DNA of 42,316 bases, from the NCBI GenBank assembly GCA_946623205.1, contig CAMOQV010000001.1, forward strand, positions 1 to 42,316, written 5' to 3'. The position numbers and the translations under genes were made by a program. Positions 651-20,634 of the stretch are shown here, piece by piece. Positions within the stretch are counted from its first letter, which is position 1, and each line of letters begins with the position of its first letter. The notes under the pieces were generated by a model. That model was not told the DNA's origin and did no database searches. It worked only from the letters and a program-made list of their open reading frames with translations. This DNA is from an uncultured Clostridia bacterium (GTDB lineage Bacteria; Bacillota; Clostridia; Christensenellales; UBA3700).

Positions 651-3600
651 TTATATATCGTTAGGATCCAAGCTAAGTTTTATTTGCCCATATGTAACTT
701 TTATACTATAAGATCCAGTTACATCATTTCCGTTTTCATCATAGATATGTAACTCGCTAATCTTATTTTCTTGTACTCCAACGATTTGTTGTGGTGTTAC
801 AAAAGTGCACGCTATTCTATGTCCGCTAACCAATGTTCCTTGAGATAGGAATACTTCTTGATGTATGCTTCCGTTTGTTATTAATTGAGAAATAGAATTT
901 GTAGAGATTGCAATATATTTTGGTTTAACTACAACAGCATTTCCATTAACAACAATACGATAATTATTTGCAATGTTTGTTGTTCTAAATACATCTGAAC
1001 TGCTATAAACGCAAATCTCGTTTACATTCAAATCCGCAGCCTTAATTACGCCAGCATTAACAATTGGGCCCCTTATGCTTTGCATTGTCCATTCAATTAC
1101 AACATTTGAAGGTTGAGAAACTATTGTCCAAGCATTTGTCTTTGGACTTATTTCTTGTCCAGTGTATGTCTTAATGTAATTCTTTACATTAATTACAATA
1201 ATTTCCTTATCTGTCATTTCTACTTGGCCGTCAACCATATGGATGATAAATCTATTTGTAACATCATTTCCATAAGAGTCGAATAGCTTAAACTTCATAA
1301 TTTTACTTCTACTTATTCCAACGCCGACTTGACCGCCCAAAATCTCACATTCATATGTATATCCTTTGCTAATCAAGTTTTCAAACAAGCCTTTGTTTAC
1401 ATAAACTCCACTCTCGTTTGTAAATTCATATGATTCAACTTGTTGCTTTGGAGCAAGCTCAGCATCTGGATTCAATGGATCAAATGAACCTAATGTAAAT
1501 ACTGGATGTATATACATTTCTTTATCATAGAAATAATCTTCAACGTTAACAGTACTTGAAATATCTGAATCTTGTGAATTCTCGTTGTTGCTACCGCTTC
1601 CGCTAGCACCACCACTACTATTTGAATCGCTTCCAGTAACTTCTACAGCAATCCATCCCAATCCATATACATATACTTCAACCCAAGCATGTGCTTGTTT
1701 TTTAGTAATTGAAGTCTTTGTGTTAGGTTCTGTAACTTCGCCCTTTAATCCAACAACAAGTCTCGCTGGAATGCCTAATGTTCTATATAACAATGTTGCA
1801 GCACTTGCATAATGTCTACATACACCTTCTTTGTACTTAGTTAAGAATGCATATACAAAATCTGATTCTTCATCTAACGCTGGATCATATGCTAAGTTAT
1901 ATTTAGCAGACTTTTGAATATATTGAGCAACCTTTTGAATAACTGCAGAATCGCTAATTGTAAAGCCTTGACTGTTTATAATACTGATTAAATATTGTTT
2001 CAATTCGCCATCTGGAACAGTTAAATAATTAGATCTAAATAAATTGCTCATTCTATAATCTTGCTCAATTATTCTTAAATCTTGAGTTGTTTGAGATAGT
2101 TGAGTTAATATACCAACTGTTGAATCTCTATATTCTATTTCATACCCAAAGCCATCATGTTCTAATGTATGCAACTCTTGTGGATCCATATATTCCATTG
2201 CTGTATAGTATGGAACTAAAGCACCGTCAATAAATGATTTGATTGTTACATTATTTTTGCTTACTCCTAAATCACCTAGAGCAAGGCCTGTTAGAGCGTT
2301 ATATGAATATGTCTTTTCGTTATATGTAAATGTTCTATTTGCAATAGAACTATCCTCTGCATTCCATGTTGATCCTGTATAGTTTGCATAAGCTTCAGTC
2401 TTTAGATAAATCGATCCTGCGACATCTGATGTAACCATACATAATACTGATTCTTTATCTGCACCATTGTTATCTTGGTAATCAAAATTTTCATCCCAAT
2501 CTTGAATATTATCTTCTTCTGGATCTTCTGGCATATCTTTTTCGTCTGCAACGATTGTTAATGTACCGAAAATAATATTTACTGGCTCATAGAATTCTTC
2601 GTGTTCCCCATATACTTTAGCTGATGCCTTATTTGGAACAGAACCAATATCTACAATTCTTCCGTAGATTTCAACCGCAAGTTGATCGCCTTCTAAAACA
2701 GAGCCTGTCTCGATAATATAATGGTCATACATTAATGGAGTGCCACTATATACTGCATATTTACTACCTGTCTTTATGGTAATTTTTCTCTTAATGATTT
2801 CTATGTTACCTTTTGTGTCAATATTATATTCATAGTTTTCGCTAACATCTACATCATTTGTTTCATCTTCATCGCCATCACTGCCATCGAAAACAGAGAT
2901 ATCATAATCTATAATGTATGTTTCGTTTTCAGATAATCCTAATTCTAATCTTCCGCCGCCAAATGTAACGCTATTTACGACCATATAATGGCCATCAACG
3001 AATCTGCTTACTTTTTGCAACTTTCCATCTACAATACCATCTACAAGAATCTCTTCAATATCTTTTGCTGTTTGCATTTCGCCTGTGTATTCTAATGAAG
3101 CATTAGATGGTCTAATATAAATTAGTTTCTTATGAATAATTAAATTAATACTGCTAAATTCAACTATTGTTCCAGCTAAATCGACAAACGAAATTGCATA
3201 ATAGTTAGCTTCTTTATACTCATCTAAATCTGCATCATAAGTTAAAACTTTAATATCGCTTGTGTTTATTACGTATTCACCTGCATTGGTTTTAGCGAAT
3301 TCAGCTACATTAATAATATCGTCGCCTAATAGTTTTGTGTTATCTATAATATATTCGCTAATGTTAGGTGTATGCTCTTTAGCATCATATTCATATTCAA
3401 TATTGCTAATTTGGATATATATTTGTCTTGCTACGATATTTAAAGTTTGCGTTCTTAATTCAACATCATAACAATCAGCGTTGTCTAGAATATATTCACC
3501 AATCTCAACTGTATATTCGCCAATCTCTGTGCCTTCGCCTATAAATTCGAGAACACGTAATTCGTCGCCGCCAACCAAGCTTCCTTCTATAAATTCATAT

Positions 3601-6600
3601 TCATCTATAGTATGAACTTCTCCATCGTATTCAACCTCAATATGTTTTGGAGCAACAACTAATTTACGAGGAACGACTTGCACATATGATTCATCATTTG
3701 TGTACGTAATAATAAAGTTACTTGTAACTGTGTATCTCATCGTGCCATCGCTGTATGTTATTACAGGATTACTCATCGAAGCATAGCCATCTCCTGGAGT
3801 CTTTACGCTTAAGCTATATGTTGGGCTAAATGTGAATATTATTTGCTCTAGAGCATCATCTATTATGAATGCATTTGCTGCTTCACCTGCTGCTATATGA
3901 TCACCACCAAACACAATTGCTGGAGTATGAGCTTTACCATCATATTCAAATACCGAATGTTCCGCTTCTTCATCCCAAGCCACATTTAAAACTCTCGGAT
4001 TAATTGTTAATGTAACAACTGGAACATCCGATTCAATTATTGTTCCTTGTGCGTTTCTATAATTAACCTCTATTCCATCTTTCACGAAATGGACATTATA
4101 ATATCCTTTCATAAATAGATCAAAATCTATCATAGAGTAGCTATATACATAATCTGCATTTTGTACATCTTTTACGTTTGCAGTTGTATATGGGGCTAGA
4201 TTTAATTTATCGCCAAATACTAAATTAGTCTCATCTTGTAGCGGATCTCTATATGAAACGTTGTTATATTCGTCTTCTTCTTTAATAACTTCATGTATAT
4301 CTGGACTATGCTTTAATCCATCATATGTATATTCTGCGTTTGCTATAGAAATATAAATATGTATTGGGTTGATTGTCAATGTAACTGGGTTTGGTCCCAC
4401 TGGAAGAACCTGATAATAGTCAGCAGGGATCCTCTCGCCATAGTTATTATATGAAACTATTGGATAATACTCTTCAACAGTTTCTATTCCGTTAATTGTC
4501 TTTGTAATAGTATTGTTTTGAACATCGTAAACATACGTGCCAACACCAATAAAGCCTTTGTTTATAACTTCATCTCCTGGCAACAATTCATATCCATCTA
4601 CTGGATAGAATAAAATTTCCGCAAATTTCTCGTTGCCATCATATGTTACAGTGTTATCCTCTGTATGTAGATATACTGGTACAGGATTAATAGTTAGATT
4701 AACCATAGGGTTTGAGCCATCTTTTAATGCATTATCCCCATCTACAAATCCTAAAATTGTATAATTGCTTGTTACTTCTTCATTGTTAGCATTTAATATC
4801 TTTAATTCGCTTAATTCGAATTCGTAAACATAATCCCCATCTGCGATTGATTTAATCGTTGTTCTTGTAAAGTAGTCTACATTGAAATGGTCTCCATCCA
4901 TCAAGCCAACATCGCTACCAACTATTGGTTCATAGCTATCATTGACCTTCTTTACTACGCTAAAGGTTGGAGAGTGTGGTTGTCTATTATATATATAAAC
5001 TCCATTTACGGCCTTAACATAGATCTCTCTATTTACGATAAATAGAGTTACACCTTCTATGCCCTCATCAAACAATACGCCATCACTATCTACATAGTGA
5101 ATGTTATAATATGTAGCATACTCTAACGAAGCTGCCATCTTAATTTGAGCATTTAGTGGAGCGAAATGATATGTTCCAATTTCTTTGCCTTTATATGGTT
5201 CTTTATCTAATGTATCGCCAGATAGTAGATTTGTATTATTGAATGAAACTACATAAGAAACAACGCTATCAACAGTTTGCTTCATCACTTCTTGGATGCT
5301 TGGATAATGGTCTTTTCCGTCATAGATAATAGTCGTATCAGTCAATTGATAATATATATCTATCTTCTTAATAATTAACTCAACATAAGCCATACCTTGA
5401 GCAAATTCATTATCGTTTGAATCAATGTAATGAATTTCATAGTATGTTGGATCTTCGGCAGCCATTCTCTTTATTTGCATTTCAAATGGATTAAATGTAT
5501 ATTCGCCAACTTCTATTCTTTCAAATGGAGATAAATACAAATAATCATTTGTTAACAACATCGACTCTTCTGCATCGACATATTGAACTAAATCTGCATC
5601 CCAAACAACTTCTTTAATTGTTGGAGTATGCTTATTTCTATCGTAAGATACTTGAGTATCTATTAACTTGATATAAATATCTCTCTTTTCAATTTCAAAA
5701 GCTGATTGAGTATTATCATCTTTAAATGATATTTGATAATAATCAACAACTTGCTTATTAGCATCTACAATTGTAATACCTGCAATATCTATTGCATATT
5801 CCCCTATATCTGTTCTTTCATAAGGCGTAATATCAATTGAATCTCCATCAAGTAGGTTACTTTCAAAGCTATACTCTTTAATATTTGGATTTTGTTTTGC
5901 TCTATTATATGGAGTTGTATATATAGCATCTATGCTAATTACGATATCAATCTTTGTAATTTCTAATGTTACTTGAGCGTTTTCAACATTAATTGTGTTG
6001 TTCAATTTGTCTACATAACTAATGTTGTAATACGTACATGCAGTATATACATTGTTTTTATATTTAGCGATTGGATAATAATCCTCTATAGTTTCCTCGC
6101 CATTTACATTCATCGTAATCTTATTTGTATATAAATCATATGCATATGTGCCAATTGCGCTAAATACTGGAACGTATGCTATATCTCCTGTCAATATCTT
6201 TGTAGTTTCTTCTGTTGCATCAACATATGTACCTGATACGTCATCGTAATATACTTCTTTTATTATTGGACTATGAAGCTCTCTATCAAATGATGTTGAG
6301 TAATTATCTAACATCAAAGTAATTTCTATTGGAACAATTGTAATTGTTACAAATATATTACCTTGCGTTACTGGTACTGCGTCAACAGGCATACCATTTC
6401 CATCTAGTGTTATTGCATAATATTTAATTTCATAATAATCAACAACTTCTTGCGCACTATTTAAAACCTTTTTATCGTTTAGATCAAACGTATCTGTACC
6501 CACATCAGTTCTCTTATAATCTGAAGTTGAATATGAATCCCCAGATAATAAGGCAGCATAATCTGGGATAACCCCGGCATCGTGTGCATGGCCGTCGTAT

Positions 6601-9600
6601 GTGAATGTATATTCTATTAACCCAATTTTGAATTCTATTTTACTAATTATTATTTGAGCTGAAGATATATCATCTTTAAATGTTATGTTATAGCAATATG
6701 TCTCTATATCACCATTTGCGTCCTTAATGTTAATATCAGATATATCAACATCATATGATCCAATATCTGTTTGTCCATATGGTGTTAAATCTAGATAATC
6801 GCCAGAAATCAAATTGCCTTCATATGACACTTTTGGATATTGCACTTCTCTTGTATAAGAAGAATCTAAATCTTCTATCGTAACTAATACGTCTATCTTT
6901 TCAATTGTTAATGTAGATAGGATATTATCAAACGAAATATCGTAATACGAAACAGCACCATCTGATTCATTAACGACTTCTATATCGCTAATATCGATAT
7001 TATATACACCTGGGTTAATCTTTGCATATGGTGCAAGATTCAAGCTATCACCATTTAAGCAACTTCCTGATGTAATGCTAATTTCCGGACGTTGATAATC
7101 TCTTGTATATGTAGTAGTTTTTGATGGTTCAATAGTAACCATTAAAGCTCTCTTTGTAATATTGAATGTTATAATTGCATCATCTAAATCTATAGAATTG
7201 CCATCCAAATCTACAAAATAGATTTCATAATAACTAGCATCAGAATCCACATTATCTTCATTATGAAGAATTGGATAATAATGTTCCTCTAAAACTGCTT
7301 CGCCTATTGTTGCAGTAAGTGTTTGCGTTTTAAAGTTGAAAACATAGCTTCCTATTTCAATAAAGCTTCTAATTGTCAAATAATCGTCAGGTAACAATAC
7401 TGAAGAATTTGTTTCTGCAGATACATATTGAGCGCCATCCCATAGGACTTCTTTAATATGTGGTGCATGAGATGTCTTTGTATATTCATAAGACTCATCT
7501 TGTATTATTTGTAAATATAAATCGATTTTCTTAATAGTTAATGTAACGCTATCTTTATTATCCTTATAAATTACATTGTAGCAATCTGTAACATCTTCTT
7601 GCGTTTCGCTATTTAGAATCTTTAAATCATAATTTGTAAAACCATAAATTCCAACTTCTGATCTTAAATAACTATCTTTATCTATATAATCATTTTCTAG
7701 TAACTTCGATTCCCCGCTTATTACTTCTTCTATTTCTGGTCGAACATATCCTCTATCGTATTTATAAATTTTATCTGTTAACGCAATAGTAATAACTCTT
7801 GGGACAATTGTTAATGTAACTGATGTCTTATCCTCATAGCAGTGTATTTGATAATGATGAGTTACGTCTTCTCCTGTCTCTAGATTATGGAATTTAATTT
7901 CATCTGCATAATGAGTATATGTGCCAATTTCGCTATGCCACCAACCAACATCGCTATATGCATCTCCTGTCAATAAATAGCCTTCCAAAAACTGATTGCC
8001 TTCCAAATCTACTGATTTCATAGTTGGCATATAATTAGCTCTTGAATACTCTACTTCTCTATCCTCTAAGCGCAAATATACATCTATTTTTCTAATTGTT
8101 AGATTTGCTATAACATCTTCACTATCTAAATAAGGTGTATCTAATTCATCAACATAAGATATCTTATAATAATCAACATTAATTAATTCTTCATCAACTC
8201 GTCTTTGAATTATATTAAAATCTTCCTCTTCATCATCTGGCATTAGAATCTTATTTTGTGTTAGGTTATAGTTATATTCACCAACTTCGATAAACTCTCT
8301 TGTAATGAAGACATCCCCATCTAATAAGCTTCCACTCAATAATTCAAATGTTGGATGATGTGCTTGTCTATCAAAAGCAACATTAACATCTGTTATCCTT
8401 ATTGTTAATTCAATAGGATTAATTGTTAATGTTACAATTTCTTCAGTATTTATAGTGTTATCTTCATTGATAAAACCTAAAATTTCGTAATACGTCTTGA
8501 TATTTTCTTCATTTTGATCGTATATCTTTAGATTGTTTAAATCAAAGGTATATGTATAATCATCTTTGTTTAATCTCTCATCTAATGGCTTTACGTGCTC
8601 TCTTGTAAAGAAGCCAAGATTGAATCTATCTTCACCAAGAAGACCAATATCGCCATTTTCAATTTGCACATACGAAATGTCATTAGTTAATTCATCTACA
8701 ACTTTCTTAACTATAATAATCTCTGGACGATATTGTTTTACACCTTCAAATGTAAATGTCTTATTTATAGTCTTTATATAGAATGCTCTCTTTATAATAT
8801 TCAATGTAGCTACATCTTTGCCTTCAACAAATCTTACATCGTAATAGCTAACTTCATCACCATTTGAATTTCTAATCTTTACGTTTTTAATGTCATATTC
8901 ATAACTACCAACTATGCTGTTTCCAAATTCAGATACATCAATATAATCACCCGCAAGCAACTTGCTCTCGCCATCTATATATTCAAATGCATTGATAGCA
9001 TAGTAGTTATCATCAAATATAACTGTTTTTTCTTCATTTGTTAGAGTAACAATTCTCTTTAAAATCTTTAAGCTTCCGAAATCTTCATCTACAATTGTGA
9101 AATATTTTTCTGAGTTATAATCTAAAACGGCTCTAACAACAACCTCAGATTCTGCCAATACCGGGTTGTAATCTATCATCTTTGCAAGAACTGGATAGAT
9201 AGTACCTGTTCTATTATTTTCCGTATCATATATGCCAGGCAAATCTAACTCTTCTGGCACATATGGTTCATATTCTCCCGTTAGTGCATTTAATCTTAAT
9301 AGATAATATGTTGGTTCATCCTCGCTATATAAAGCAGTGCCGTCATATTCTTTTTCTTTGCTTTGAGTTGTTACCTTTAATTTAACTTTTTCTACAACTA
9401 AATCGCCTAATACCAACTTTAATTTATAGTTAGTACTCTCTATGCCATTTTCATAATCATCTTCGCTTTCATATATCTTAATATCCAAATCGTTTGTTAG
9501 TGTCCCTGGATATGTAAGTGTAGGAATCGAAGATCCTTTACTAACTCGAATTAGCGCATCTTTATATAACGTTCCTTCTACGTGTTCAAATCCAGCCGTT

Positions 9601-10772: not shown

Positions 10773-12991
10773 CAGTACAATTCAAGCTCCCCTGATATTG
10801 TGGTTATTATGAAGTTCTTTGTTATATCTACTAATACAGTATTATCATTTTGATCTTTCTTACTATAGTAAATCTTTACTTCTTCTATATCGTTATCTGC
10901 TATGCCTTGCTCCGTTAGGATTGTTGGCATAGTTACTTTAACTACTAAATCTTCAATATATCCTTGATATTCATATGTGAAATCATCTTCATCACATTGC
11001 AATCTTGCACCTGGTGTATATGCAGCTCTTTCGCTTCCTGCAGTTACTGTAATTAAGACAGGAGTGATCTTTACTTCGCCAGGAATTGCTTCTATTTCAT
11101 AATCATCCGTAGCATCGACACCACCTCTTAAAATCTCAACTTTGAATGGATTTTCATACACACCTATATCTCTAAATGTGTTTTGGAACGTTAATCTCAA
11201 TTCGTCTGTTTCTGCTAAATGTCCTGCTTCAATAGAATATGCTTCAACTGTTCTATCTGTATTGTTATATGTAAAGTTTGCGTTCTTGCCTCTGATTCTC
11301 AAAAGATATTTATAAACATGCAAGGTGCCTGCACGTGTATAATCATAGCCATATTCATCACTTACATCTTCACCGTTTTCATCTACAATTACTGGCTCAA
11401 CATAGTTTGGCGTTTTACCAACTTCTGTCCTTGAAGATATGAAGTTATATGACACGATTGTGTGATTTGGTTCCAAATTGCCTGTATAGTAAACTTCTGT
11501 GCCGGCGCCTGTTAATGGTTGACCATTATATTCTCTTGAAACATCTTCAGTTGTTAAATATAAAATTGTTCTAACTTGCACAAATAATCCTTGCTCATAA
11601 GAAAAATCAAAATCATTTGTTACTTCATCGCCATCCGCGTTATAGATATGGAATTCTTCTATATTTGTTAAACCAGCATTACCAAGTTTTGTAAATCCTG
11701 ATGGATATTCAAAATCTATAATGCTACCACTCTTATCTGCATTTCCATAAAAACCAGCTGTATAATAGAACCCATCATATTTTTTTATTAAATCTATTAA
11801 ATCGCCTTCTAAGAAGTCGCCTTCTTTACGTGAATCATGTATAACCCCATCTTCGTCTGCGCCTAATGGATAATACCTACCATCAACGCCATCTTGAGGA
11901 ACTTGGCTTATCTTTGGTTTAATAACAGATTGATTATCCTCGTTTGAAACAGTTCTTCCTGTTGGATCTGTTGGAACCCAACCAACACCATCTACATATA
12001 TCTCTACCCACGCGTGCGCGTCTCTATTAGTTACTTCAACTTCTTCATCTTTTATAGCCTTTACGCTAAAGCCATCTACTCTTCTTGCTGGAATGCCTGC
12101 AGATCTATACATTAATACTGCGGCGCTCGCAAAGTGTTGGCAGATACCTTTTTTGTATTTAGACATAAAAGCAACTACGACATCGCTTTCGTTGTTCATA
12201 GCTCTATCGAATTCCAAATCATAAGATGCAGCATTTGAAACATAATTTGAAATGTTAGAATAAATATTCTTTGTATCTTTTGACCAGCCTTTATCTCTCA
12301 ATATATCTAAAAAATATTGTTTTGTTGTTTGAGGAACTGCTGTGTAATGTTCATATACGAAAGTTCTATATGCTAATTCTTCTTGCGAATATTGTGTTCT
12401 TGGCGATGATTTAACCATAGATGACAATGTATCTGCATTATATTTATTAGCGCCAAAATAAATTGCTGTATATGGGCTACTTACATCACCGCTATTTTCT
12501 ATATCACTTGTTTGAAGTTTAACACTGCTTCCCATTGGAGATGTGTAATATGGGAGTACATAGTTGTTGTAATTAGGATCAATCTTCATGCTATATATCA
12601 ATGCACCTTGCTCATCACAATATAACGCAGTTAAATAATCACATGAGATTGAATTATTTATTAATTCTTGGTATTCAACCGGATTTTGCCATGCATTATT
12701 TTCCATATCTCCATATGCAAAGGCTTTTAATAATACTGTTCCATTTGAATTTGCTGTAACTCTATAACAAACTCTTGTTTCACTATCCGAATCTGTTCCC
12801 AAATCCGAAGAGAATTGTCCATTTCTATTTAAAGCGTTAGCTAAAGCCTCAGAAAGGCCTGTCTTCATAACGCCATCTTCAAAGTTTACGAAAAAGCGCA
12901 CAACAAACAAAAGCAAAGCTGCAATAGTAAATATTGCTAACATGCCTACAAGATTCAATCCATGATTACTTTGCTTCTTCTCTTGTGCCAT
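10772..12991 (-). CDS. membrane-anchored transglutaminase-like protein (739 aa) with C-terminal MBG-like repeats; short paralogue of the giant protein
   Basis: N-terminal TM LVGMLAIFTIAALLLFVV. Canonical Transglut_core triad context: KKGICQHFASAA (Cys 12140-12142) and DAHAWVEIYVDGVGWVPTDPTG (His 12014-12016, DPT Asp). The pre-core region aligns with the giant protein (VLPYYTSP vs LVPYYTAM; AFAYGDMENNAW vs EAYANYTGSTW). The C-terminus has 3-4 YNG/YxI-type repeats. Confidence 0.88.
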   Translation of the reverse strand: MAQEKKQSNHGLNLVGMLAIFTIAALLLFVVRFFVNFEDGVMKTGLSEALANALNRNGQFSSDLGTDSDSETRVCYRVTANSNGTVLLKAFAYGDMENNAWQNPVEYQELINNSISCDYLTALYCDEQGALIYSMKIDPNYNNYVLPYYTSPMGSSVKLQTSDIENSGDVSSPYTAIYFGANKYNADTLSSMVKSSPRTQYSQEELAYRTFVYEHYTAVPQTTKQYFLDILRDKGWSKDTKNIYSNISNYVSNAASYDLEFDRAMNNESDVVVAFMSKYKKGICQHFASAAVLMYRSAGIPARRVDGFSVKAIKDEEVEVTNRDAHAWVEIYVDGVGWVPTDPTGRTVSNEDNQSVIKPKISQVPQDGVDGRYYPLGADEDGVIHDSRKEGDFLEGDLIDLIKKYDGFYYTAGFYGNADKSGSIIDFEYPSGFTKLGNAGLTNIEEFHIYNADGDEVTNDFDFSYEQGLFVQVRTILYLTTEDVSREYNGQPLTGAGTEVYYTGNLEPNHTIVSYNFISSRTEVGKTPNYVEPVIVDENGEDVSDEYGYDYTRAGTLHVYKYLLRIRGKNANFTYNNTDRTVEAYSIEAGHLAETDELRLTFQNTFRDIGVYENPFKVEILRGGVDATDDYEIEAIPGEVKITPVLITVTAGSERAAYTPGARLQCDEDDFTYEYQGYIEDLVVKVTMPTILTEQGIADNDIEEVKIYYSKKDQNDNTVLVDITKNFIITTISGELELY

Positions 12992-12992
12992 C

Positions 12993-14438
12993 CTAAATGT
13001 TATTTACAATGTTATGAATGTATTGTTTACATCTTGGCATTGCTTCCTCTCCAAATAGTTCATTTAGCTTGTCTACTAACCCATCTGCTCCATTTTTAAC
13101 GTAGATTGGGTTCTTCATCTCAAGCTTTCTCAATATCTTCTTAGATAAGATATCGTCTAACGCATCAAGTTCTTCTCCGCCACATCCAATGTAAATCGGT
13201 ACATACTTATTTATTTGCATCATAATTCTGTTACCAAATGTTACTTGGAAATGCTTCGTTAAGTAATTGTCTAATTCCTTTAACTTCTCTTTGTTTCTCT
13301 CTGTTAATGCATTCTCTTGTTGTGCATTTAATATCAATCGATCAAAATCTTTTGCACTTAAATGTAGATTAGAACTATTTCTTCCTCTAAATGGTTCACA
13401 CTTGTTATCCAAGTTTAGAATCATAGCTCTATCGTATACCTTATCTGAAATAGCAAATGTACTATCATCATTGTTTGCTGTTCCAATAAACCACATGTTT
13501 GTTGGTAATTGTATTTGTCCATCTTTCAAACTTGCTGGGTCTGTTGCCCACTTGTCTGAAACTACTTCCATATATCTTTCATCTGCTCTTGGTAATTCCA
13601 ATAAAGATAAGAATTCTGCAAAGTAATACTCAACTCTCGCAATATTCATTTCATCTAGCACTGTTATATAGATGTCTTCTGAATAATTCGCTTCATACAT
13701 CTTCTTTAATAGAGCTGTTTCATTAAAGTGCTTTGTGAATTCATTGTAATATCCAATAAGGTCTGTTCTTTCCTTCCACATAGGTTGAATTGGAATAACT
13801 GTTGATGGATTCTCTACAAATCTACCAAATGCATATGCAAGTGATGTCTTACCTGTACCAGACATACCTTGCAATATTAAGATGTGAGATACTCCAAGTC
13901 CAGCTATGAATGACCTAATATCTTCTGCTCTGTAATATAACCCTAATTCATTTGCTGAATAGTTTCTAAAATCATCACAGAACATCTCTAATGTAATATT
14001 GTTGATGTAATCATCCTTTGAATATGTCTCTCTCTTCTTATCTATTTGCTTCAATATGCTGAATCTAGATATGTTCTTGTTGTTCTTATCACTAGCTTTG
14101 CTTGAGCCTATACTTCCTGTTCCTTCAACTAATAATTCGTTTGGCAACGATAGTTGATATGAACCATGATGTCTTTGATATCTATACAAGGCTCTTGCAT
14201 TTTCTCTAATTCTTTTGAAGATAACGATAACAGTCACTAAAAGTACAATTGGAGTACCAATTAAAAGAGCGATTAAATATACGAAATCTATTACGTTTTG
14301 TTCTTCAATATATTTTTTGAACTCTTCAATATTAGCAACTATTACCAATTCCAAGATGAAAGCAACAATCACAACGATTATTGCGGCTACAATCATAACA
14401 TTAGTTAGAGTTATTTTCTTATTGTTTGAACTTTTCAT
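12993..14438 (-). CDS. membrane-anchored McrB-type AAA+ NTPase (481 aa, two N-terminal TM helices)
   Basis: Walker A GMSGTGKTS (13842-13868). Walker B plus following helix VLDEMNIARVEYYFAEFLSLLE (compare McrB IIDEINRANLSKVFGE..LLE). LPTNMWFIGTANNDDST (compare McrB NVYIIGLMNTADRS). Two hydrophobic helices lie at the N-terminus, followed by a basic stretch, KRIRENARALYRYQRHH. Confidence 0.8.
   Translation of the reverse strand: MKSSNNKKITLTNVMIVAAIIVVIVAFILELVIVANIEEFKKYIEEQNVIDFVYLIALLIGTPIVLLVTVIVIFKRIRENARALYRYQRHHGSYQLSLPNELLVEGTGSIGSSKASDKNNKNISRFSILKQIDKKRETYSKDDYINNITLEMFCDDFRNYSANELGLYYRAEDIRSFIAGLGVSHILILQGMSGTGKTSLAYAFGRFVENPSTVIPIQPMWKERTDLIGYYNEFTKHFNETALLKKMYEANYSEDIYITVLDEMNIARVEYYFAEFLSLLELPRADERYMEVVSDKWATDPASLKDGQIQLPTNMWFIGTANNDDSTFAISDKVYDRAMILNLDNKCEPFRGRNSSNLHLSAKDFDRLILNAQQENALTERNKEKLKELDNYLTKHFQVTFGNRIMMQINKYVPIYIGCGGEELDALDDILSKKILRKLEMKNPIYVKNGADGLVDKLNELFGEEAMPRCKQYIHNIVNNI
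12994..14110. repeat. direct repeat copy A (1,117 bp), apparently 100% identical to 15982-17098
   Basis: Base-by-base reading agrees. The encoded C-terminal ~370 aa are identical, as are the antisense shadow ORFs (13267-13626 = 16255-16614; 13499-13726 = 16487-16714). The offset is a constant 2,988 bp. Confidence 0.9.
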
Positions 14439-15981
14439 CTTCTACCTTCTTAAACAATATTTCTCTTTGTAGTCTCTTCTTGGTCTTCTTCCATGCCATT
14501 TTGTAATACTCGCCGATTACTTTGTATTCCTTTTCGATTAATTTAAACTTGTCCTCATCTGTATAGTCTTGATAATCTACTTCCAATCCAAGTTGATTTC
14601 TAAATGCATTATTTTGTGTAATTGCACTATCAAATTTCTCTCTTTGAAGCTCCATTGAATGTTGCATGTTTGCTAATTCTTTTTCAAGATTACCTTTTGC
14701 TTGAATTAAATTGCTTCTTTCGTTGTTCACTTGGCCTAGTTCTTGTTCAAAAACCGCTTGTCTTTGAGCTATTTTGTTTTCATAAGCTATTGCCATGCTT
14801 GCTTTTTCTTCTTGCAAGTTCGCAATATCGCCCTTTAGTGCTTTAATTGTTCCTTTTTGTTTTTCAATAACGCTATTTGCACTTTGAAGTTCTAGTAATT
14901 GAGATTCTAGATATTGGATTCTTTCATTTTGTATTAAAATGTATTCATCTATTTCCTTTCCGCTAAGCTTTTGCTTGCCTCTTAATTCTTGAATTCTCTC
15001 TTTAACTTCTTCAATTCTTTCAGCTTCTTCGATCTTCAATTGTTTTTCCATTTCTTCTTGAAGAGATTCGCCAAGTTCCATACTATGCATTTGCATTAAG
15101 AACAATAGCAACAAAACTGTGTTATTGAAATCGTCTTCAGCTTCTCTATCTAATTGTTTTTCAACAGCTTCTCTTGTAATAGAATATCCTGGTGCTGAAT
15201 ATGTAGATATATATTCATATAAGGCAAGAGCATATTTGAAGTTTGTTTCCATTTTTAAAACGTTAGTTTTTGTAATAGGTGGCTTAATCATTGGCACCTT
15301 GCTTACTTCTACCATAAGCGGAGTAGATAGCAATTTCAAAATAGCGTTTAAAACGTCTTCAATTCTTTGTACAACTTTAGCGTTAGCACTATCTTTAGAC
15401 AATGACATATTCTCATCTTCAATATTGATTGAATATGTAATATTTCTTTGTTTTGTTTTATATTTAGAGCCAATCTCTAAAACTGTGTAATATTTTCCTG
15501 AATATTCTGTAATCTTGTTATATCTTTCAGTTGTGAAGTCTCTTAAATAAGTTAATAGCAAATACAAGAATCTATTCTCATAAACAGCATAATCACTTAG
15601 CTTTTCTACGGTGTAAATCTTTTCTGGTCTTACTTCATCTGTTTCTTCGTCAATCTCTTTAATTAAAGATGCGTGCTTTGCAAGATGGCTAATAGATTCT
15701 TTTGATACACTCTTTGTCTTTTCAATTAAAACAACTTCTCCGTTTGTTCTAATGAATTGTCTTTCTTGCGAAATTGCCTTTTCTATATACTTTAGATTGT
15801 TTTCAATTTCGCTTATCCAATCTTCTGTTACTTCACACTTAATTCTTTCTATTGAAAGCTTAGATATCTTACTTGAACCAAGCGAGTTGATTTGACGTAA
15901 AAAGTTTTGGATACCCTTATCCTTTAGCGCAAACTTTTTATATTCAACAAACGCTCTATAGTAATAATCTATCGTTCTCAT
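14419..15981 (-). CDS. McrC-position partner protein: DUF2357-like N-terminal region plus long coiled coil, no nuclease domain (520 aa)
   Basis: Sandwiched between the two McrB-like genes and translationally coupled to both (TAATG at 15981; 20-nt overlap at 14419-14438). The YAVYENRFLYLLLTYL motif (about 15568-15582) resembles the ENRF(V/L)K motif of DUF2357/McrC-like proteins. Residues ~300-470 are heptad-rich and E/K/Q/L-rich (EEMEKQLKIEEAERIEEVKERIQELRGKQ...). No PD-(D/E)xK signature is visible. Confidence 0.6.
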   Translation of the reverse strand: MRTIDYYYRAFVEYKKFALKDKGIQNFLRQINSLGSSKISKLSIERIKCEVTEDWISEIENNLKYIEKAISQERQFIRTNGEVVLIEKTKSVSKESISHLAKHASLIKEIDEETDEVRPEKIYTVEKLSDYAVYENRFLYLLLTYLRDFTTERYNKITEYSGKYYTVLEIGSKYKTKQRNITYSINIEDENMSLSKDSANAKVVQRIEDVLNAILKLLSTPLMVEVSKVPMIKPPITKTNVLKMETNFKYALALYEYISTYSAPGYSITREAVEKQLDREAEDDFNNTVLLLLFLMQMHSMELGESLQEEMEKQLKIEEAERIEEVKERIQELRGKQKLSGKEIDEYILIQNERIQYLESQLLELQSANSVIEKQKGTIKALKGDIANLQEEKASMAIAYENKIAQRQAVFEQELGQVNNERSNLIQAKGNLEKELANMQHSMELQREKFDSAITQNNAFRNQLGLEVDYQDYTDEDKFKLIEKEYKVIGEYYKMAWKKTKKRLQREILFKKVEDEKFKQ

Positions 15982-17318
15982 TAAATGTTATTTACAATGT
16001 TATGAATGTATTGTTTACATCTTGGCATTGCTTCCTCTCCAAATAGTTCATTTAGCTTGTCTACTAACCCATCTGCTCCATTTTTAACGTAGATTGGGTT
16101 CTTCATCTCAAGCTTTCTCAATATCTTCTTAGATAAGATATCGTCTAACGCATCAAGTTCTTCTCCGCCACATCCAATGTAAATCGGTACATACTTATTT
16201 ATTTGCATCATAATTCTGTTACCAAATGTTACTTGGAAATGCTTCGTTAAGTAATTGTCTAATTCCTTTAACTTCTCTTTGTTTCTCTCTGTTAATGCAT
16301 TCTCTTGTTGTGCATTTAATATCAATCGATCAAAATCTTTTGCACTTAAATGTAGATTAGAACTATTTCTTCCTCTAAATGGTTCACACTTGTTATCCAA
16401 GTTTAGAATCATAGCTCTATCGTATACCTTATCTGAAATAGCAAATGTACTATCATCATTGTTTGCTGTTCCAATAAACCACATGTTTGTTGGTAATTGT
16501 ATTTGTCCATCTTTCAAACTTGCTGGGTCTGTTGCCCACTTGTCTGAAACTACTTCCATATATCTTTCATCTGCTCTTGGTAATTCCAATAAAGATAAGA
16601 ATTCTGCAAAGTAATACTCAACTCTCGCAATATTCATTTCATCTAGCACTGTTATATAGATGTCTTCTGAATAATTCGCTTCATACATCTTCTTTAATAG
16701 AGCTGTTTCATTAAAGTGCTTTGTGAATTCATTGTAATATCCAATAAGGTCTGTTCTTTCCTTCCACATAGGTTGAATTGGAATAACTGTTGATGGATTC
16801 TCTACAAATCTACCAAATGCATATGCAAGTGATGTCTTACCTGTACCAGACATACCTTGCAATATTAAGATGTGAGATACTCCAAGTCCAGCTATGAATG
16901 ACCTAATATCTTCTGCTCTGTAATATAACCCTAATTCATTTGCTGAATAGTTTCTAAAATCATCACAGAACATCTCTAATGTAATATTGTTGATGTAATC
17001 ATCCTTTGAATATGTCTCTCTCTTCTTATCTATTTGCTTCAATATGCTGAATCTAGATATGTTCTTGTTGTTCTTATCACTAGCTTTGCTTGAGCCTACA
17101 TTGCCAACGCCCTTAACCTTAATAGCCTTGTCTGGCAATTGAAGTTCAACTGTTTGTGTTGTTTCTCTAAAATCTTTTGCTTGCTTTGCTTGGATGATAA
17201 GCAAAATAACCATTATCGCAATGAAAGACACAATCAACGTAGAATAAATAATAATCGCATACGTTGATGTGAAAATATCTATGATTTCACTGGACAATAA
17301 AAATAACGTATTAAGCAT
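15981..17318 (-). CDS. membrane-anchored McrB-type AAA+ NTPase (445 aa, N-terminal TM anchor)
   Basis: Same AAA+ module as 12993-14438 (Walker A 16830-16856, Walker B DE 16638-16643), with a different N-terminus: IIIYSTLIVSFIAIMVILLIIQAKQAK. GGAGGA sits 6 nt upstream of the ATG. Confidence 0.8.
   Translation of the reverse strand: MLNTLFLLSSEIIDIFTSTYAIIIYSTLIVSFIAIMVILLIIQAKQAKDFRETTQTVELQLPDKAIKVKGVGNVGSSKASDKNNKNISRFSILKQIDKKRETYSKDDYINNITLEMFCDDFRNYSANELGLYYRAEDIRSFIAGLGVSHILILQGMSGTGKTSLAYAFGRFVENPSTVIPIQPMWKERTDLIGYYNEFTKHFNETALLKKMYEANYSEDIYITVLDEMNIARVEYYFAEFLSLLELPRADERYMEVVSDKWATDPASLKDGQIQLPTNMWFIGTANNDDSTFAISDKVYDRAMILNLDNKCEPFRGRNSSNLHLSAKDFDRLILNAQQENALTERNKEKLKELDNYLTKHFQVTFGNRIMMQINKYVPIYIGCGGEELDALDDILSKKILRKLEMKNPIYVKNGADGLVDKLNELFGEEAMPRCKQYIHNIVNNI
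15982..17098. repeat. direct repeat copy B (1,117 bp), apparently 100% identical to 12994-14110
   Basis: See copy A. Identity stops abruptly at 17098/17099 (copy A 14110/14111) and at the stop codons (TAA here, TAG in copy A). Confidence 0.9.
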
Positions 17319-18786
17319 CTATATCCTCCAAAAAATCATCAATATCTTCAATTTCGTCATCATCTTCATATTTTGAAGCTCTTATTAAATCGTCATCGCT
17401 AGCTAATTTTGCTTCATCATCTTCGTAATCTATCTCGTCTTCTTGCTTCTTTGCGAATCTATTTGAATAATACTCTTCATCTTGATCATTATTTGAAGAA
17501 CTTGCATTTGCATTTTCTTCATACATATAATCCATCAAAACTCTAGATAACTCTTCATTCTTTGTTCCGATTAAATGAGAAATCTTCTTTGTCATTTCCT
17601 TATCGTTTGCGCTACTAATAATTGGTGCAACTAAAGGCAAAATTCTTTCTATTAAGATAGTGTTTCTAAACTCTTTTTCTGGAATGCCAAATTGGCCAAG
17701 TAATGATACAAATCTTTCGATTTCAACACATTCTTTATTAGACAATTTAACTTCCTTTTGAATTGCCATAATACTATCAATGAACTTCCAATCATCTTCG
17801 CTCATCATGAACGAGCCCTTTTGCGAATCAATTCTATACAAATAGTCGTATGTAACATCACATGAACCTACAGACTCTACACGATCATTTGTTGGTCTTG
17901 GATGTATTTCAATGATTGTAGCTGCTTTTCTCAATTCTTTTGGATACCACTTAATTTCATCAAATGTTTCAATTGCGCAGAATACAATGTGAGATGGAAT
18001 TCTCAAATTCTTATTCTTGTATTCAAGTTCTACGTCGCTATATCTAACATTCAATAGTGGTAGAGTTGCAGCCAAAATATCTTGTTTTTCTGGACCAAGA
18101 TTTACAAGTTCTATTAATCTTAGTTCTTCAAGACCTAAATCTTTATCCAATGCTCTAACTAATGATTCTGTATTAAATACGATATCCATATCAAATTGCT
18201 TTGATTTAATACCAATACTTGCTAATTGATCAATAATAATTCCACCAAGCTCAATATCGTCTGTATTTAATACAACAAACTTTCCAGATAAAACTGCACT
18301 AATTACTCTTATTGCTTCTTTAGAATCTAGAGTAACTCCTCTTTCTTGTAAATTTTCTAGGAATATATCTAGAACATCTGAATATGCTACATAATTCTTA
18401 ACAATCTTTTGATTAACTCTTTCTCTCTTTGAAATATTAAATGCTGAATCAAAGAAATATTCGATTGCTTCATTTTTATTCTTTTGAGTATAACGAGATG
18501 TTAACATTTCAATCTGAGTTATCTTGCTATATGTTGGATCCTTTAATTTGTTTCTCATATTTACTGCGGATAATCCCAAAATTGCAAATGCTATAAATCC
18601 AGCAACCATCATCATGATGCATGCTGACAACCAAACTACATCAATATCACTTGTTGGAGAAAAACTTCTAACAAGTGGAACTGTCAAAGCAGCAAGGCCT
18701 GCAGCCATCATTACATATAAAGCTCTTTGCCAGCCGCTATCATACATTTTTAATGGAGACTTTTCATATGAATCATATCTTCTCAT
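17311..18786 (-). CDS. membrane-anchored degenerate paralogue of the McrB-type module with poly-acidic C-terminal tail (491 aa)
   Basis: Two N-terminal TM helices. The cytoplasmic part aligns by eye with the neighbouring ATPases but lacks the catalytic motifs: LNTDDIELGG replaces LQGMSGTGKTS, LIELVNLGPEKQDILAATLPLLN replaces VLDEMNIARVEYYFAEFLSLLE, and IPSHIVFCAIETFDE replaces LPTNMWFIGTANNDD. About 60 C-terminal residues are D/E-rich. AGGAGG RBS. Confidence 0.6.
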   Translation of the reverse strand: MRRYDSYEKSPLKMYDSGWQRALYVMMAAGLAALTVPLVRSFSPTSDIDVVWLSACIMMMVAGFIAFAILGLSAVNMRNKLKDPTYSKITQIEMLTSRYTQKNKNEAIEYFFDSAFNISKRERVNQKIVKNYVAYSDVLDIFLENLQERGVTLDSKEAIRVISAVLSGKFVVLNTDDIELGGIIIDQLASIGIKSKQFDMDIVFNTESLVRALDKDLGLEELRLIELVNLGPEKQDILAATLPLLNVRYSDVELEYKNKNLRIPSHIVFCAIETFDEIKWYPKELRKAATIIEIHPRPTNDRVESVGSCDVTYDYLYRIDSQKGSFMMSEDDWKFIDSIMAIQKEVKLSNKECVEIERFVSLLGQFGIPEKEFRNTILIERILPLVAPIISSANDKEMTKKISHLIGTKNEELSRVLMDYMYEENANASSSNNDQDEEYYSNRFAKKQEDEIDYEDDEAKLASDDDLIRASKYEDDDEIEDIDDFLEDIDA

Positions 18787-18796
18787 AATCCACCTC

Positions 18797-19813
18797 CTAC
18801 ACCAAATCTGAATATGGAATCACTTGACCTTCATAGTAGAAAGTAATTTGATCTACATTTTCAAATGCTCCACTTTCGATTTTTGGTTTTGATTTATACA
18901 ATCTAACTGTACGTACTTGGTAACATCCAGAGAACGCGCTGGATTTAACTGTTTCGGCACCATACAATTGGACTGTTTTTAAACCTTGACAGAAGCTAAC
19001 TGTATTTGCATTTATTGTCTTTGTTTCTAATATTGCCTCAACTAGCGAGCTACATGAAACAATGGCACTGCTGTTAATCTTCTTTGCCTCAATATCTACG
19101 GTATATAAAGATGGGCAAGAAACGATTGCTCCAGCTTCAACTTCATCAAGATGATATACACTAATACTCTTAACATTTGATTGGTTAAAAGCTCCCTTTT
19201 TAATTCCACTCAAATTAAATGTTCTATCTTGCGTAAACGCAATAGACGTCGTGTCTGGATTTACTTTTTGTATGTAAATCTTTCCAACGCTTTCTTCTAC
19301 TAACGTAACTCCTGGATACAAATCATTTGTACCTACGTTGTTACCAAGCCAAATTTGCATTTGTTGATACATTGGAAGATACATTGCAATAAATACTCCT
19401 GTAAGTAAAACCAAAAATGCTGTCAATGTTGCACTAAATGCTGTGAATTTTTTGGTTGCATCGGCAACTTTTGCTCTTGTCTTCTTTACTGGAGCTGCTT
19501 GTTTAATTTCTATAATTTCGATTGCTTCACAATTTGGACGCAATGGCATTTGCTTTGCCTTACCAAAATATTCGCCTGGCTTTGCGTATTGTTTTGTGAA
19601 TAATATATTATCTGTTTCTAGGACTTTACCTTTTGCGTCAACTTGATTGATTTTGCAAGTAATATCTTTAATTAACTCTCTTGAATTGTTCTTAAATTCA
19701 ATAATTGCGTATCTTTGTTTTTCTTCGATAAAGATGACATATCTTGTTGCGATAAGACTACTCTTTAGTTTGCTACTTAGGGTGACTGCTTTATAAATAA
19801 CTTTAGTTGCCAT
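18797..19813 (-). CDS. single-pass membrane protein with extracellular BspA-type leucine-rich repeats (LRR_5-like)
   Basis: Central TM FTAFSATLTAFLVLLTGVFIAMYL. The C-terminal ~150 aa show units of ~20-23 aa with (A/S)(F/I)x(S/G)Cxx(L/V) (GAFNQSNVKSI, AIVSCPSLYTV, AIVSCSSLVEA, VSFCQGLKTV, SAFSGCYQVRTV, GAFENVDQI). GGGGGT RBS. Confidence 0.65.
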   Translation of the reverse strand: MATKVIYKAVTLSSKLKSSLIATRYVIFIEEKQRYAIIEFKNNSRELIKDITCKINQVDAKGKVLETDNILFTKQYAKPGEYFGKAKQMPLRPNCEAIEIIEIKQAAPVKKTRAKVADATKKFTAFSATLTAFLVLLTGVFIAMYLPMYQQMQIWLGNNVGTNDLYPGVTLVEESVGKIYIQKVNPDTTSIAFTQDRTFNLSGIKKGAFNQSNVKSISVYHLDEVEAGAIVSCPSLYTVDIEAKKINSSAIVSCSSLVEAILETKTINANTVSFCQGLKTVQLYGAETVKSSAFSGCYQVRTVRLYKSKPKIESGAFENVDQITFYYEGQVIPYSDLV

Positions 19814-20555
19814 TTGTCTTTACCCCCTTTTGCTTAAATTGAGGTCTGAAAATCGCTCTAGTTATAAATAATATAATTGGGACCGTTGCTATATATGCAA
19901 TAATTGGAACTACGATGGCTGCCACACTAATTGTTTGCTCATAATTTTTACTCCACATAGACATTAATGGAGAAACATCTCCAGCAAATCCTGCTAAGAA
20001 AAATGCTATAACAGCAAATGCTGCTGGAATAATAGCAATAGCTGCAGTAAATGCATATTTAAGCATATCTGTCGTTCTAATGTTTTGCTTATTTACTTTT
20101 TCGTTGTTAGCTTTAATAACGTTTATTTGAACAGTTTTTGTCCTTTCAGATAAACGAACCAAATCTAACTCTCCACCATCAATTGTTTGCTGATCAATAG
20201 TGATAGTCTTGAATGGAACATATTCGTCGTCATTCTTTTCGTCATACATTGTTACTTCATAACGAATAGATTGTAAATCTTGAGCAAGAATTGGACGTAA
20301 GTAACAATTTAACCCTTTGTACACAATAACCGCCTTGTTAATATATTGTGCAGATTTTGATCCCGTAACTTGTACGATAAGCGTTCTTGTTTCTAGACTA
20401 TCTTCGTCCTTAACAATTTTGTCTGGACCTTTGAAGACGCGTCTATTAATCATGAACACTTTTGGGAAAACGAACATGTTTAGCGCAGCCAATATAATAA
20501 ATGCTATTACAAAGACTGAACTGGCAATGTCTAAATCGATAACACCAAAAAGCAT
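19803..20555 (-). CDS. small 3-TM membrane protein with ~130-aa cytoplasmic domain (250 aa); first gene of the operon
   Basis: Hydrophobic helices at aa ~10-30 and two near the C-terminus. Basic residues flank the cytoplasmic faces. GAGGGA lies upstream of the ATG. No recognisable family. Confidence 0.6.
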   Translation of the reverse strand: MLFGVIDLDIASSVFVIAFIILAALNMFVFPKVFMINRRVFKGPDKIVKDEDSLETRTLIVQVTGSKSAQYINKAVIVYKGLNCYLRPILAQDLQSIRYEVTMYDEKNDDEYVPFKTITIDQQTIDGGELDLVRLSERTKTVQINVIKANNEKVNKQNIRTTDMLKYAFTAAIAIIPAAFAVIAFFLAGFAGDVSPLMSMWSKNYEQTISVAAIVVPIIAYIATVPIILFITRAIFRPQFKQKGVKTNGN

Positions 20556-20606
20556 AGTCCCTCTCTTAAATTTTTATTTTTATTCGCGCTTGCGTTATAT
20601 TTTTAT

Positions 20607-20634
20607 ATTATAGCAAACAAAGTATAGCGCGCAA
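20607..20634 (-). promoter_or_regulatory. candidate sigma-70-type promoter of the eight-gene operon
   Basis: Minus strand reads TTGCGC (20629-20634), a 16-nt spacer, then the extended -10 TGCTATAAT (20607-20615). It lies about 50 nt upstream of the ATG at 20555. Confidence 0.4.

Follow-up and report, generated by a model that had tools for sequence, protein, structure and literature searches.

An operon of gut Clostridia that joins membrane-tethered McrB-type GTPase modules to giant transglutaminase-core surface proteins

We describe an eight-gene operon carried by a 42,316-nucleotide (nt) stretch from the genome of an uncultured Clostridia bacterium (Christensenellales; GenBank assembly GCA_946623205.1, contig CAMOQV010000001.1), hereafter the window. 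The operon encodes three membrane-tethered proteins with AAA+ modules of the type found in McrB, a soluble McrC-like partner, and surface proteins that include a transglutaminase-core protein of 3,373 amino acids (aa). The cluster is real and conserved, we found no description of it in the literature, and it holds both a McrBC-derived GTPase module and a pairing of an AAA+ protein with a TgpA-type transglutaminase.

The operon and its products

Eight open reading frames (ORFs), here g1 to g8 from upstream to downstream, are tightly packed on the minus strand between positions 651 and 20555 of the window. Neighbouring genes overlap by 11 nt (g1/g2, 19803-19813), 8 nt (g3/g4, 17311-17318) or 20 nt (g5/g6, 14419-14438), share bases of their stop and start codons (TAATG at 15981 for g4/g5; TGATG at 10772 for g7/g8), or are separated by a single nt (g6/g7, 12992) or by 10 nt with AGGAGG (g2/g3, 18786/18797). 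An initial annotation of this DNA had proposed eight abutting ORFs on the same strand, and every one of its junctions was reproduced. Its transmembrane (TM) topologies also agree with our hydropathy analysis, which places the three AAA+ modules, g5, the loop of g1 and the N-terminal domain of g2 in the cytoplasm, and the leucine-rich repeat (LRR) and transglutaminase parts outside. The annotation had further excluded any DNA-binding domain, nuclease or methylase. Searches with Pfam, NCBIfam and PADLOC bear this out, having detected none of the three in the operon proteins; none of the eight matched an NCBIfam family.

The AAA+ modules of g4 (445 aa, 15981-17318) and g6 (481 aa, 12993-14438) both match AAA_5 (E 2e-7 each) and are of McrB type. 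They are preceded by one N-terminal TM segment in g4 and by an N-terminal hairpin of two TM segments in g6. Among PDB sequences, McrB was the sole family matched by the module, the best match of g4 being E. coli McrB (6hz4, E 8e-4), and the HMMER alignment to E. coli McrB runs without gaps through Walker A (GMSGTGKT), Walker B (LDEMN) and NxxD (NNDD). Across 19 family members, the catalytic motifs of g4 and g6 (Walker A, a Walker B of the DExN type and NxxD) do not vary, and both proteins are predicted to be catalytically intact McrB-type GTPases. The PADLOC profile PDC-M26A also matches the AAA+ core, at an E value of about 1e-43 (8e-44 for g4) and over profile positions ~312-431 of 724. Nothing else among the operon proteins matched a PADLOC model.

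The third AAA+ protein, g3 (491 aa, 17311-18786, minus strand), consists of a TM hairpin, an inactive McrB-like AAA+ paralogue and an acidic C-terminal tail. It has no Pfam match, and its relationship emerges when its family is aligned to the AAA+ family with hhalign (99.8% probability, E 2e-28, 319 columns). Walker A, Walker B and NxxD are all lost across the g3 family, and by these motifs g3 is a conserved pseudo-GTPase. In most relatives the protein is 1,050-1,380 aa long and has an extra N-terminal region of ~650 aa before the TM hairpin, with GH3_C and Fn3-like matches (for example L001:6576-9998, L004:5845-9984 and L009:6502-9975, together with 43 others; L numbers denote the loci of relatives). 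Because these long forms have no signal peptide and two TM segments, their GH3-like region should be cytoplasmic. The lineage of the window and its two closest relatives have evidently lost it.

Between the two intact GTPase genes lies g5 (14419-15981, minus strand), which encodes a soluble, McrC-like protein of 520 aa with a DUF2357 region at ~aa 50-260 and, at its C-terminus, ~200 aa of coiled coil. DUF2357 is the N-terminal domain of McrC; it was matched in 12 of 38 members of the g5 family, with a best E value of 1.6e-7. An AlphaFold2 model of g5 shows long helices at residues 304-463, and the conserved segment at ~aa 74-128, modelled at low confidence, is a putative finger region. No nuclease family was matched by g5 in Pfam, NCBIfam or PADLOC, and its invariant columns contain no D/E/K triad. 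When the family profile was compared with PDB sequences, the only matches were spurious ones to coiled coils (apolipoproteins, tropomyosin).

The last two genes of the operon encode type-II-anchored proteins, each with a single N-terminal TM segment and a transglutaminase core. In g7 (739 aa, 10772-12991, minus strand), Transglut_core spans aa 238-343 (DNA 11963-12280; Pfam E 8e-22), has an intact Cys-His-Asp triad and is followed by two YDG-type repeats. The giant g8 (3,373 aa, 651-10772, minus strand) begins with a cytoplasmic tail (aa 1-26, DNA 10695-10772) and its TM segment. An array of ~25 YDG-type beta-repeats, delimited by iterated HMM searches, follows at aa 198-2744 (DNA 2541-10181). 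Its Transglut_core (Pfam E 2e-20) lies near the distal tip, at aa 2943-3044 (DNA 1641-1946), and has a Cys-His-Glu centre. The closest solved sequence to the transglutaminase core is PDB 6g49 (E 6e-9), annotated as a protein-glutamine gamma-glutamyltransferase, which we take to be P. aeruginosa TgpA, represented by its periplasmic domain. Nearly every copy from relatives retains the catalytic Cys and His; the third position is occupied by Asp in g7 and by Glu in g8, as in most relatives.

The repeats of g7 and g8 measure 81-126 aa and share the consensus TLxI..YDG..P..LLxGD..GxY..YYxI, which resembles MBG/YDG. Single repeats match the Pfam MBG/YDG families PF17883 and PF18657 below threshold (E 0.03-0.25), and a confident AlphaFold2 model of one g8 repeat (pLDDT 96) had no PDB match in Foldseek (best E 0.4). 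The label MBG-like, which the initial annotation had used for these repeats, is therefore no more than plausible. The array is old, since its repeats are dissimilar at the DNA level. Beyond the catalytic domain, g8 ends in a Ser/Gly linker and an AgI/II-C2-like region, for which the C-terminal 349 aa (DNA 651-1700) score 26.8 bits against AgI_II_C2, just under the cut-off of 27.1. A faint match to this streptococcal antigen I/II C2 domain is also seen in the giant proteins of relatives. Across the g8 family, the ectodomain varies about 5-fold in length, from about 600 to 3,373 aa, and the tail is conserved: about 45 genomes encode the motif M-x-Y-x-x-Y-x-x-K-(I/V/M)-x-K-x-A...(R/K) in the first ~25 residues of the protein.

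The operon opens with two smaller membrane proteins. The first, g1 (250 aa, 19803-20555, minus strand), has three TM segments by hydropathy and a ~140-aa loop that is predicted to be cytoplasmic from the basic residues flanking the TM segments. At least 14 loci have an orthologue in this place, and no family match was found in Pfam or NCBIfam. The second, g2 (338 aa, 18797-19813, minus strand), is a single-pass protein whose TM segment (128-146) separates a cytoplasmic N-domain (~aa 15-103) from an extracellular LRR_5 domain (Pfam E 9.5e-11). Sixteen homologues conserve the N-domain, among them forms of 175-215 aa with no detected LRR match, and the length of the ectodomain in relatives lies anywhere between 0 and about 2,000 aa. 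BLASTP found no similarity between the cytoplasmic loop of g1 and the N-domain of g2.

This inventory agrees closely with the initial annotation. The annotation had recognised three membrane-tethered AAA+ paralogues, two intact and one degenerate, on which TM segments, AAA_5 matches and hhalign concur. It had also assigned the module to the McrB type, and no placement outside McrB/AAA_5 was found: McrB is the only PDB match, the motifs align, and PDC-M26A matches the core. Its coiled-coil protein in the McrC position, said to be without a nuclease, stands on the DUF2357 matches in the family, the helical C-terminal half and the lack of any nuclease match. Its single-pass LRR surface protein and 3-TM protein are g2, with LRR_5, and g1, with three TM segments; its two type-II-anchored transglutaminase-core proteins, one of 3,373 aa, are those on which Pfam and TM results coincide.

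Recurrence in gut Clostridia and the homogenised GTPase copies

To survey the relatives, we called ORFs in every locus fetched and used the eight operon proteins as queries against them. About 45 loci repeat the gene order of the operon: a small TM protein, an LRR protein, the pseudo-GTPase, a GTPase, the coiled-coil protein, a second GTPase, a transglutaminase and a giant transglutaminase. Because these loci are independent, the arrangement lies far beyond chance, and the gene set that the initial annotation had described from a single genome proved to be conserved. The GTPase itself has at least 8,000 close homologues among metagenome proteins, and its homologues form 743 clusters at 50% identity (E <= 1e-30). 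Scanning one genome per species gave at least 578 matching stretches, nearly all from uncultured gut Clostridia, with genome labels such as Christensenellaceae, Borkfalkiaceae, Coproplasma and Pumilibacteraceae. One cultured species, represented by the isolate genome of Anaerocaecibacter muris (L031), has the full cluster. No relatives of the operon were found in a scan of viral contigs. The hosts are small-celled, slow-growing gut bacteria, poor in carbohydrate-active enzymes and growing only on agar (10.1101/2022.03.07.483007).

The two intact GTPase genes contain a perfect direct repeat of 1,117 nt that went unnoticed in the initial annotation, which called them two intact paralogues. The copies lie at 12994-14110 and 15982-17098, span the last 372 codons of g6 and g4, respectively, and end one base into the stop codon. 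The repeat region is 92-100% identical at the nt level within the genome in 31 of the 31 relatives that have both genes, whereas GTPase orthologues from different genomes share 55-68% protein identity. The N-terminal anchors, by contrast, differ according to gene position, with one TM segment on the first copy in 40 of 48 loci and two on the second in 40 of 41. Judged by these comparisons, the homogenisation of g4 and g6 indicates concerted evolution, probably by gene conversion, that has been maintained across the clade. As the catalytic parts are homogenised and the anchors stay distinct, it would seem that one ring-forming module must remain identical on two different anchors. A mixed ring whose subunits have to pack like a homo-oligomer would be in keeping with gene conversion that holds one catalytic module constant across both anchors.

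A perfect repeat of this length might also arise if one gene had been duplicated in silico during assembly, in which case the two intact paralogues would be an artefact. Identity of 100% across 1.1 kb is indeed unusual, and related contigs often break at the GTPase gene. Yet the duplication, with its distinct 1-TM and 2-TM N-termini, recurs at 92-100% identity in 31 independent assemblies, among them the isolate genome of A. muris. There the two copies differ, being 97% identical with a longest exact run of 182 nt, which argues that the repeat is no product of assembly. We rejected an artefact on these grounds and consider it highly improbable.

Seven loci (L007, L012, L021, L035, L045, L059 and L060) lack g5 and the second GTPase, and in them the 1-TM GTPase gene directly precedes the transglutaminase gene. 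Such loci would be expected from recombination between the repeats, or equally from a collapsed assembly. For example, L006 and L007, which come from different samples, encode an identical first GTPase protein (P0004) and show opposite configurations, with g5 in L006 and without it in L007.

Members of the wider GTPase family are also commonly membrane-anchored. Of the 150 best GTPase representatives in this wider family, 89 have TM segments before Walker A, often four. McrB-like GTPases with four TM segments make up a second large family, with at least 5,987 homologues. Three such forms that we looked up belong to two-gene pairs with no transglutaminase nearby (L083:10001-13406, L084:10001-14359 and L085:10001-16183). 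A pooled profile of their three partners is homologous to the N-domain of g5 (hhalign 95.5%, E 1.5e-8), with a shared YENRF motif, and one DUF2357-like partner is fused to an acetyltransferase domain. The pairs sit in housekeeping or polysaccharide-export and envelope polysaccharide neighbourhoods of Clostridia, and acyltransferase genes are among their neighbours.

Upstream of g1 lies a promoter-like element on the minus strand (20584-20634), composed of a -35 sequence TTGCGC (20634-20629), a 16-nt spacer and a -10 sequence TATAAT (20612-20607), with a conserved ACGCAAGCGCGA box (20595-20584) downstream of the -10. The element scores under the threshold of a generic promoter scan. Even so, it is likely the operon promoter, since it is kept, along with its downstream ACGCAAGCGC box, ahead of the g1 orthologue in the two closest relatives, L006 and L010. 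The initial annotation had postulated one upstream promoter and no internal terminator. Conservation supports the former; as to the latter, a consensus scan found one minus-strand terminator-like site within the operon (14384-14362), which we read as a chance match because it has only three G-C pairs and lies inside the TM-coding part of g6. The intergenic segment 20584-20660 (32% GC) also holds three GCGCG-containing boxes, ATGCGCGCAT, TTGCGCGCTA and CAAGCGCGAA, around the putative promoter. Two of the three are conserved in L006 and L010, and the boxes may be an operator.

At its other end the operon is abutted by a small convergent ORF (423-650), which adjoins the stop codon of g8. Outside the operon, the window codes for pyruvate formate-lyase with its activase, for an FeFe hydrogenase, for malic enzyme and for transporters, among similar functions. 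The operon lies in an ordinary chromosome, in a housekeeping neighbourhood, and its closest relative, L006, has the same flanking pyruvate formate-lyase, phosphatase and DUF975 genes. We therefore rejected a mobile element or a defence island, given these flanks and the conserved synteny. A HAD-family hydrolase gene (20698-21393) stands between DUF975 and the operon and is absent from that position in the syntenic L006. Elsewhere in the window, a 325-aa ORF with no Pfam match (26887-27864) lies downstream of the pyruvate formate-lyase activase gene, and the 1,225-aa product of 27933-31610 is a MacB/FtsEX-like fusion that combines an ABC ATPase domain with an FtsX-type permease domain at its C-terminus.

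Comparison with McrBC and other AAA+ systems

McrBC is the textbook GTP-dependent restriction motor. The N-terminal domain of canonical McrB binds DNA, and McrC stimulates McrB. The operon resembles McrBC (6hz4, 6ut6, 7vsr) in its ungapped AAA+ alignment, in a partner with DUF2357 and in adjacent, overlapping genes for the two. It departs from McrBC at both ends of the pair: where McrB has a DNA-binding domain, g4 and g6 have one or two TM helices and a short linker, and where McrC has a PD-(D/E)xK nuclease, g5 has a coiled coil. Further, unlike McrBC, it combines two homogenised GTPase copies with a pseudo-GTPase and giant extracellular proteins, and its context is housekeeping rather than a defence island. 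A restriction system was rejected for lack of a nuclease, DNA-binding domain or methylase. By its sequence, then, the cluster is to be placed outside McrBC restriction, yet it appears to hold a bona fide McrB/McrC-type GTPase pair.

The nearest published precedent is CoCoPALM, a membrane-associated, appendage-linked McrBC derivative with coiled coils. CoCoNuT and CoCoPALM are nuclease-poor relatives of McrBC with coiled coils on the McrC homologue; the GTPase of CoCoPALM carries a fused FtsB-like region with TM segments and is linked to a surface appendage through pilus assembly, and CoCoPALM has so far been named, not analysed (Bell et al. 2024, PMC11090510). Whereas the GTPases of these systems have a shortened NxD motif, that of the operon has NxxD, its GTANNDDST aligning without gaps to GLMNTADRS of McrB, although NNDD can also be read as NxD followed by D. 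Neither the HEPN or other nucleases of CoCoNuT nor the signal-peptidase and pilus genes of CoCoPALM were found among the eight ORFs and their neighbours. Its associated genes encode transglutaminase-core and LRR giants instead.

A different parallel is offered by the MoxR/DUF58-VWA/TgpA triad and the Bat operon, in which a cytoplasmic AAA+ protein is likewise encoded with a membrane-anchored, outward-exposed TgpA-type core. The ATPase of the triad is a MoxR AAA_3 protein, but the operon modules match only AAA_5 in Pfam and have McrB as their best solved relative. The triad has a VWA/DUF58 partner, and no VWA or DUF58 match was found in the operon proteins with Pfam. Its transglutaminase is polytopic, in contrast to the single-pass, type-II proteins with long repeat stalks described here, and it has no counterpart to the McrC-like activator. 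The initial annotation had named three departures from this triad, namely an AAA+ protein of the McrB branch, its membrane tether and its McrC-like partner, and all three held.

PDC-M26 is an untested candidate for phage defence, proposed by guilt-by-embedding in BREX, DISARM or restriction-modification loci (10.1101/2024.01.29.577857). Its component PDC-M26A, a McrB-like protein, is the profile closest to the GTPase core, but no other component matches operon proteins, and the operon is not embedded in defence loci of the kind that define PDC-M26. Searches of the literature (McrB with transglutaminase, PDC-M26, CoCoPALM, and Christensenellales with transglutaminase) found no description of such a system, and no described system matched the operon. 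This accords with the initial annotation, which knew of no characterised system of the same composition. An analogy that it drew to the gliding machinery of Mycoplasma mobile gained no support from homology.

A possible envelope machine

The reading that we favour, at a probability of roughly 0.45, is a chromosomal, vertically inherited machine of the cell envelope that has no part in defence and whose membrane-tethered GTPase would work on giant fibres at the surface. By analogy with McrBC structures, the GTPase modules would assemble into a McrB-like ring at the cytoplasmic side of the membrane, with the DUF2357 finger of g5 plugging the ring and stimulating GTP hydrolysis as McrC does for McrB. 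The coiled coil of g5 might dimerise, bridge or reach other components. The TM anchors, which sit where McrB has its DNA-binding domain, would let the ring engage the tail and TM anchor of g8 and the N-domain of g2. Hydrolysis of GTP could then drive or gate one of several events: the surface fibres might be inserted, assembled or positioned, or their distal cysteine centre activated. This conserved Cys-His-Glu/Asp centre would cross-link or cleave an extracellular substrate, which might belong to the envelope of the same cell or to the surface of a partner. The layout of the proteins is in keeping with such a scheme: three surface proteins (g2, g7 and g8) are N-in/C-out, and g8 is a stalk of about 25 repeats with its catalytic domain near the tip. 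The conserved g8 tail and g2 N-domain would lend circumstantial support to the mechanical or allosteric coupling that the initial annotation had proposed between an NTPase ring and the giant extracellular proteins.

Several observations weigh against such a machine. Ring formation, insertion of g5 and binding of the tail are all drawn from the analogy with McrBC. The g5 of the window scores 21 bits against DUF2357, under the Pfam cut-off of 23.3, and Foldseek found no structural match to McrC in the PDB for the full-length g5 model, a comparison in which the coiled coil and the poorly modelled finger region outweigh the rest, so that it gave nothing meaningful. Loci that lack g5 and the second GTPase would, if real, make g5 dispensable. 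The 4-TM pairs have no transglutaminase, which suggests a function of the GTPase pair that is independent of these surface proteins. Finally, the highly variable ectodomains also fit a role in conflict or defence.

The genes might instead comprise two independent units in one operon: a membrane-bound McrBC-like pair, serving for example polysaccharide or membrane homeostasis, and ordinary adhesin and transglutaminase proteins. The 4-TM McrB-like and DUF2357-like pairs that stand alone, near polysaccharide-export or acyltransferase genes, speak for such a division, as does the free variation in size of the surface proteins. We nevertheless think it unlikely, as the order of AAA+, coiled-coil, AAA+ and two transglutaminase genes hardly varies among about 45 genomes, where these genes are translationally coupled, and as a conserved cytoplasmic tail like that of g8 would be superfluous on an autonomous adhesin; the cytoplasmic domain of g2 is conserved as well. 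Alternatively, in an envelope-level conflict or defence system, variable giants could act as sensors or decoys for contact with a phage or competitor, with the McrBC-derived GTPase signalling or executing a response at the membrane. This would suit the closeness of the GTPase core to PDC-M26A, that untested defence candidate (E 1e-43; 10.1101/2024.01.29.577857), the overwhelming predominance of defence systems among McrBC relatives (PMC11090510), and the differences in length among close relatives, which reach 1,560-3,373 aa for g8 and 175-2,154 aa for the LRR protein. We judge it distinctly unlikely: no effector (nuclease, HEPN or recognisable pore-former) was found among the operon proteins with Pfam, NCBIfam or PADLOC, PADLOC models match just one of the eight proteins, and the operon keeps to a housekeeping neighbourhood, with synteny across an order-level clade and no copies on viral contigs.

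A motor for surface motility or retraction, in which GTPase rings linked by coiled coils move or pull fibres of ~100 nm much as internal motors drive the surface legs of Mycoplasma mobile, would make use of the same parts: NTPases in the cytoplasm, a coiled coil, and giant fibres anchored in the membrane. It might also suit hosts that are small-celled, slow-growing, agar-only gut bacteria (10.1101/2022.03.07.483007). It is nonetheless very unlikely, given that no homology to gliding components was found, that the protologues consulted for cultured relatives mention no motility, and that McrB rings are not known to move proteins.

The envelope machine that we prefer could be part of something broader. 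On this more speculative proposal, which we regard as doubtful though not far-fetched, the operon would represent a previously unrecognised transmembrane mechanochemical class, in which a McrBC-type ring, recruited from DNA restriction and made of one gene-converted catalytic module on two kinds of anchor plus a pseudo-subunit, spends GTP to act through the membrane on fibres of ~100 nm, tipped with a transglutaminase or protease. With these fibres, gut Clostridia of ultra-small size would attach to partner cells or to material of the host. If so, the 4-TM McrB-like/DUF2357 pairs would be simpler members of the class.

What we have found is a GTPase/activator pair of McrBC, without its DNA-binding and nuclease parts and tethered to the membrane, in what appears to be the core genome of a widespread and barely cultured group of gut bacteria. 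Stripped of its DNA parts and retained in this way, the module points to a non-defence use of McrBC. The operon also provides a second, independent pairing of an AAA+ protein with a TgpA-type transglutaminase, and it could help to explain the long-unexplained pairing of MoxR with TgpA. The order-wide gene conversion of the GTPase copies would be a clean case from nature in which selection keeps ring subunits identical although their anchors differ. In Anaerocaecibacter muris, the system has a cultured carrier that makes it experimentally testable.

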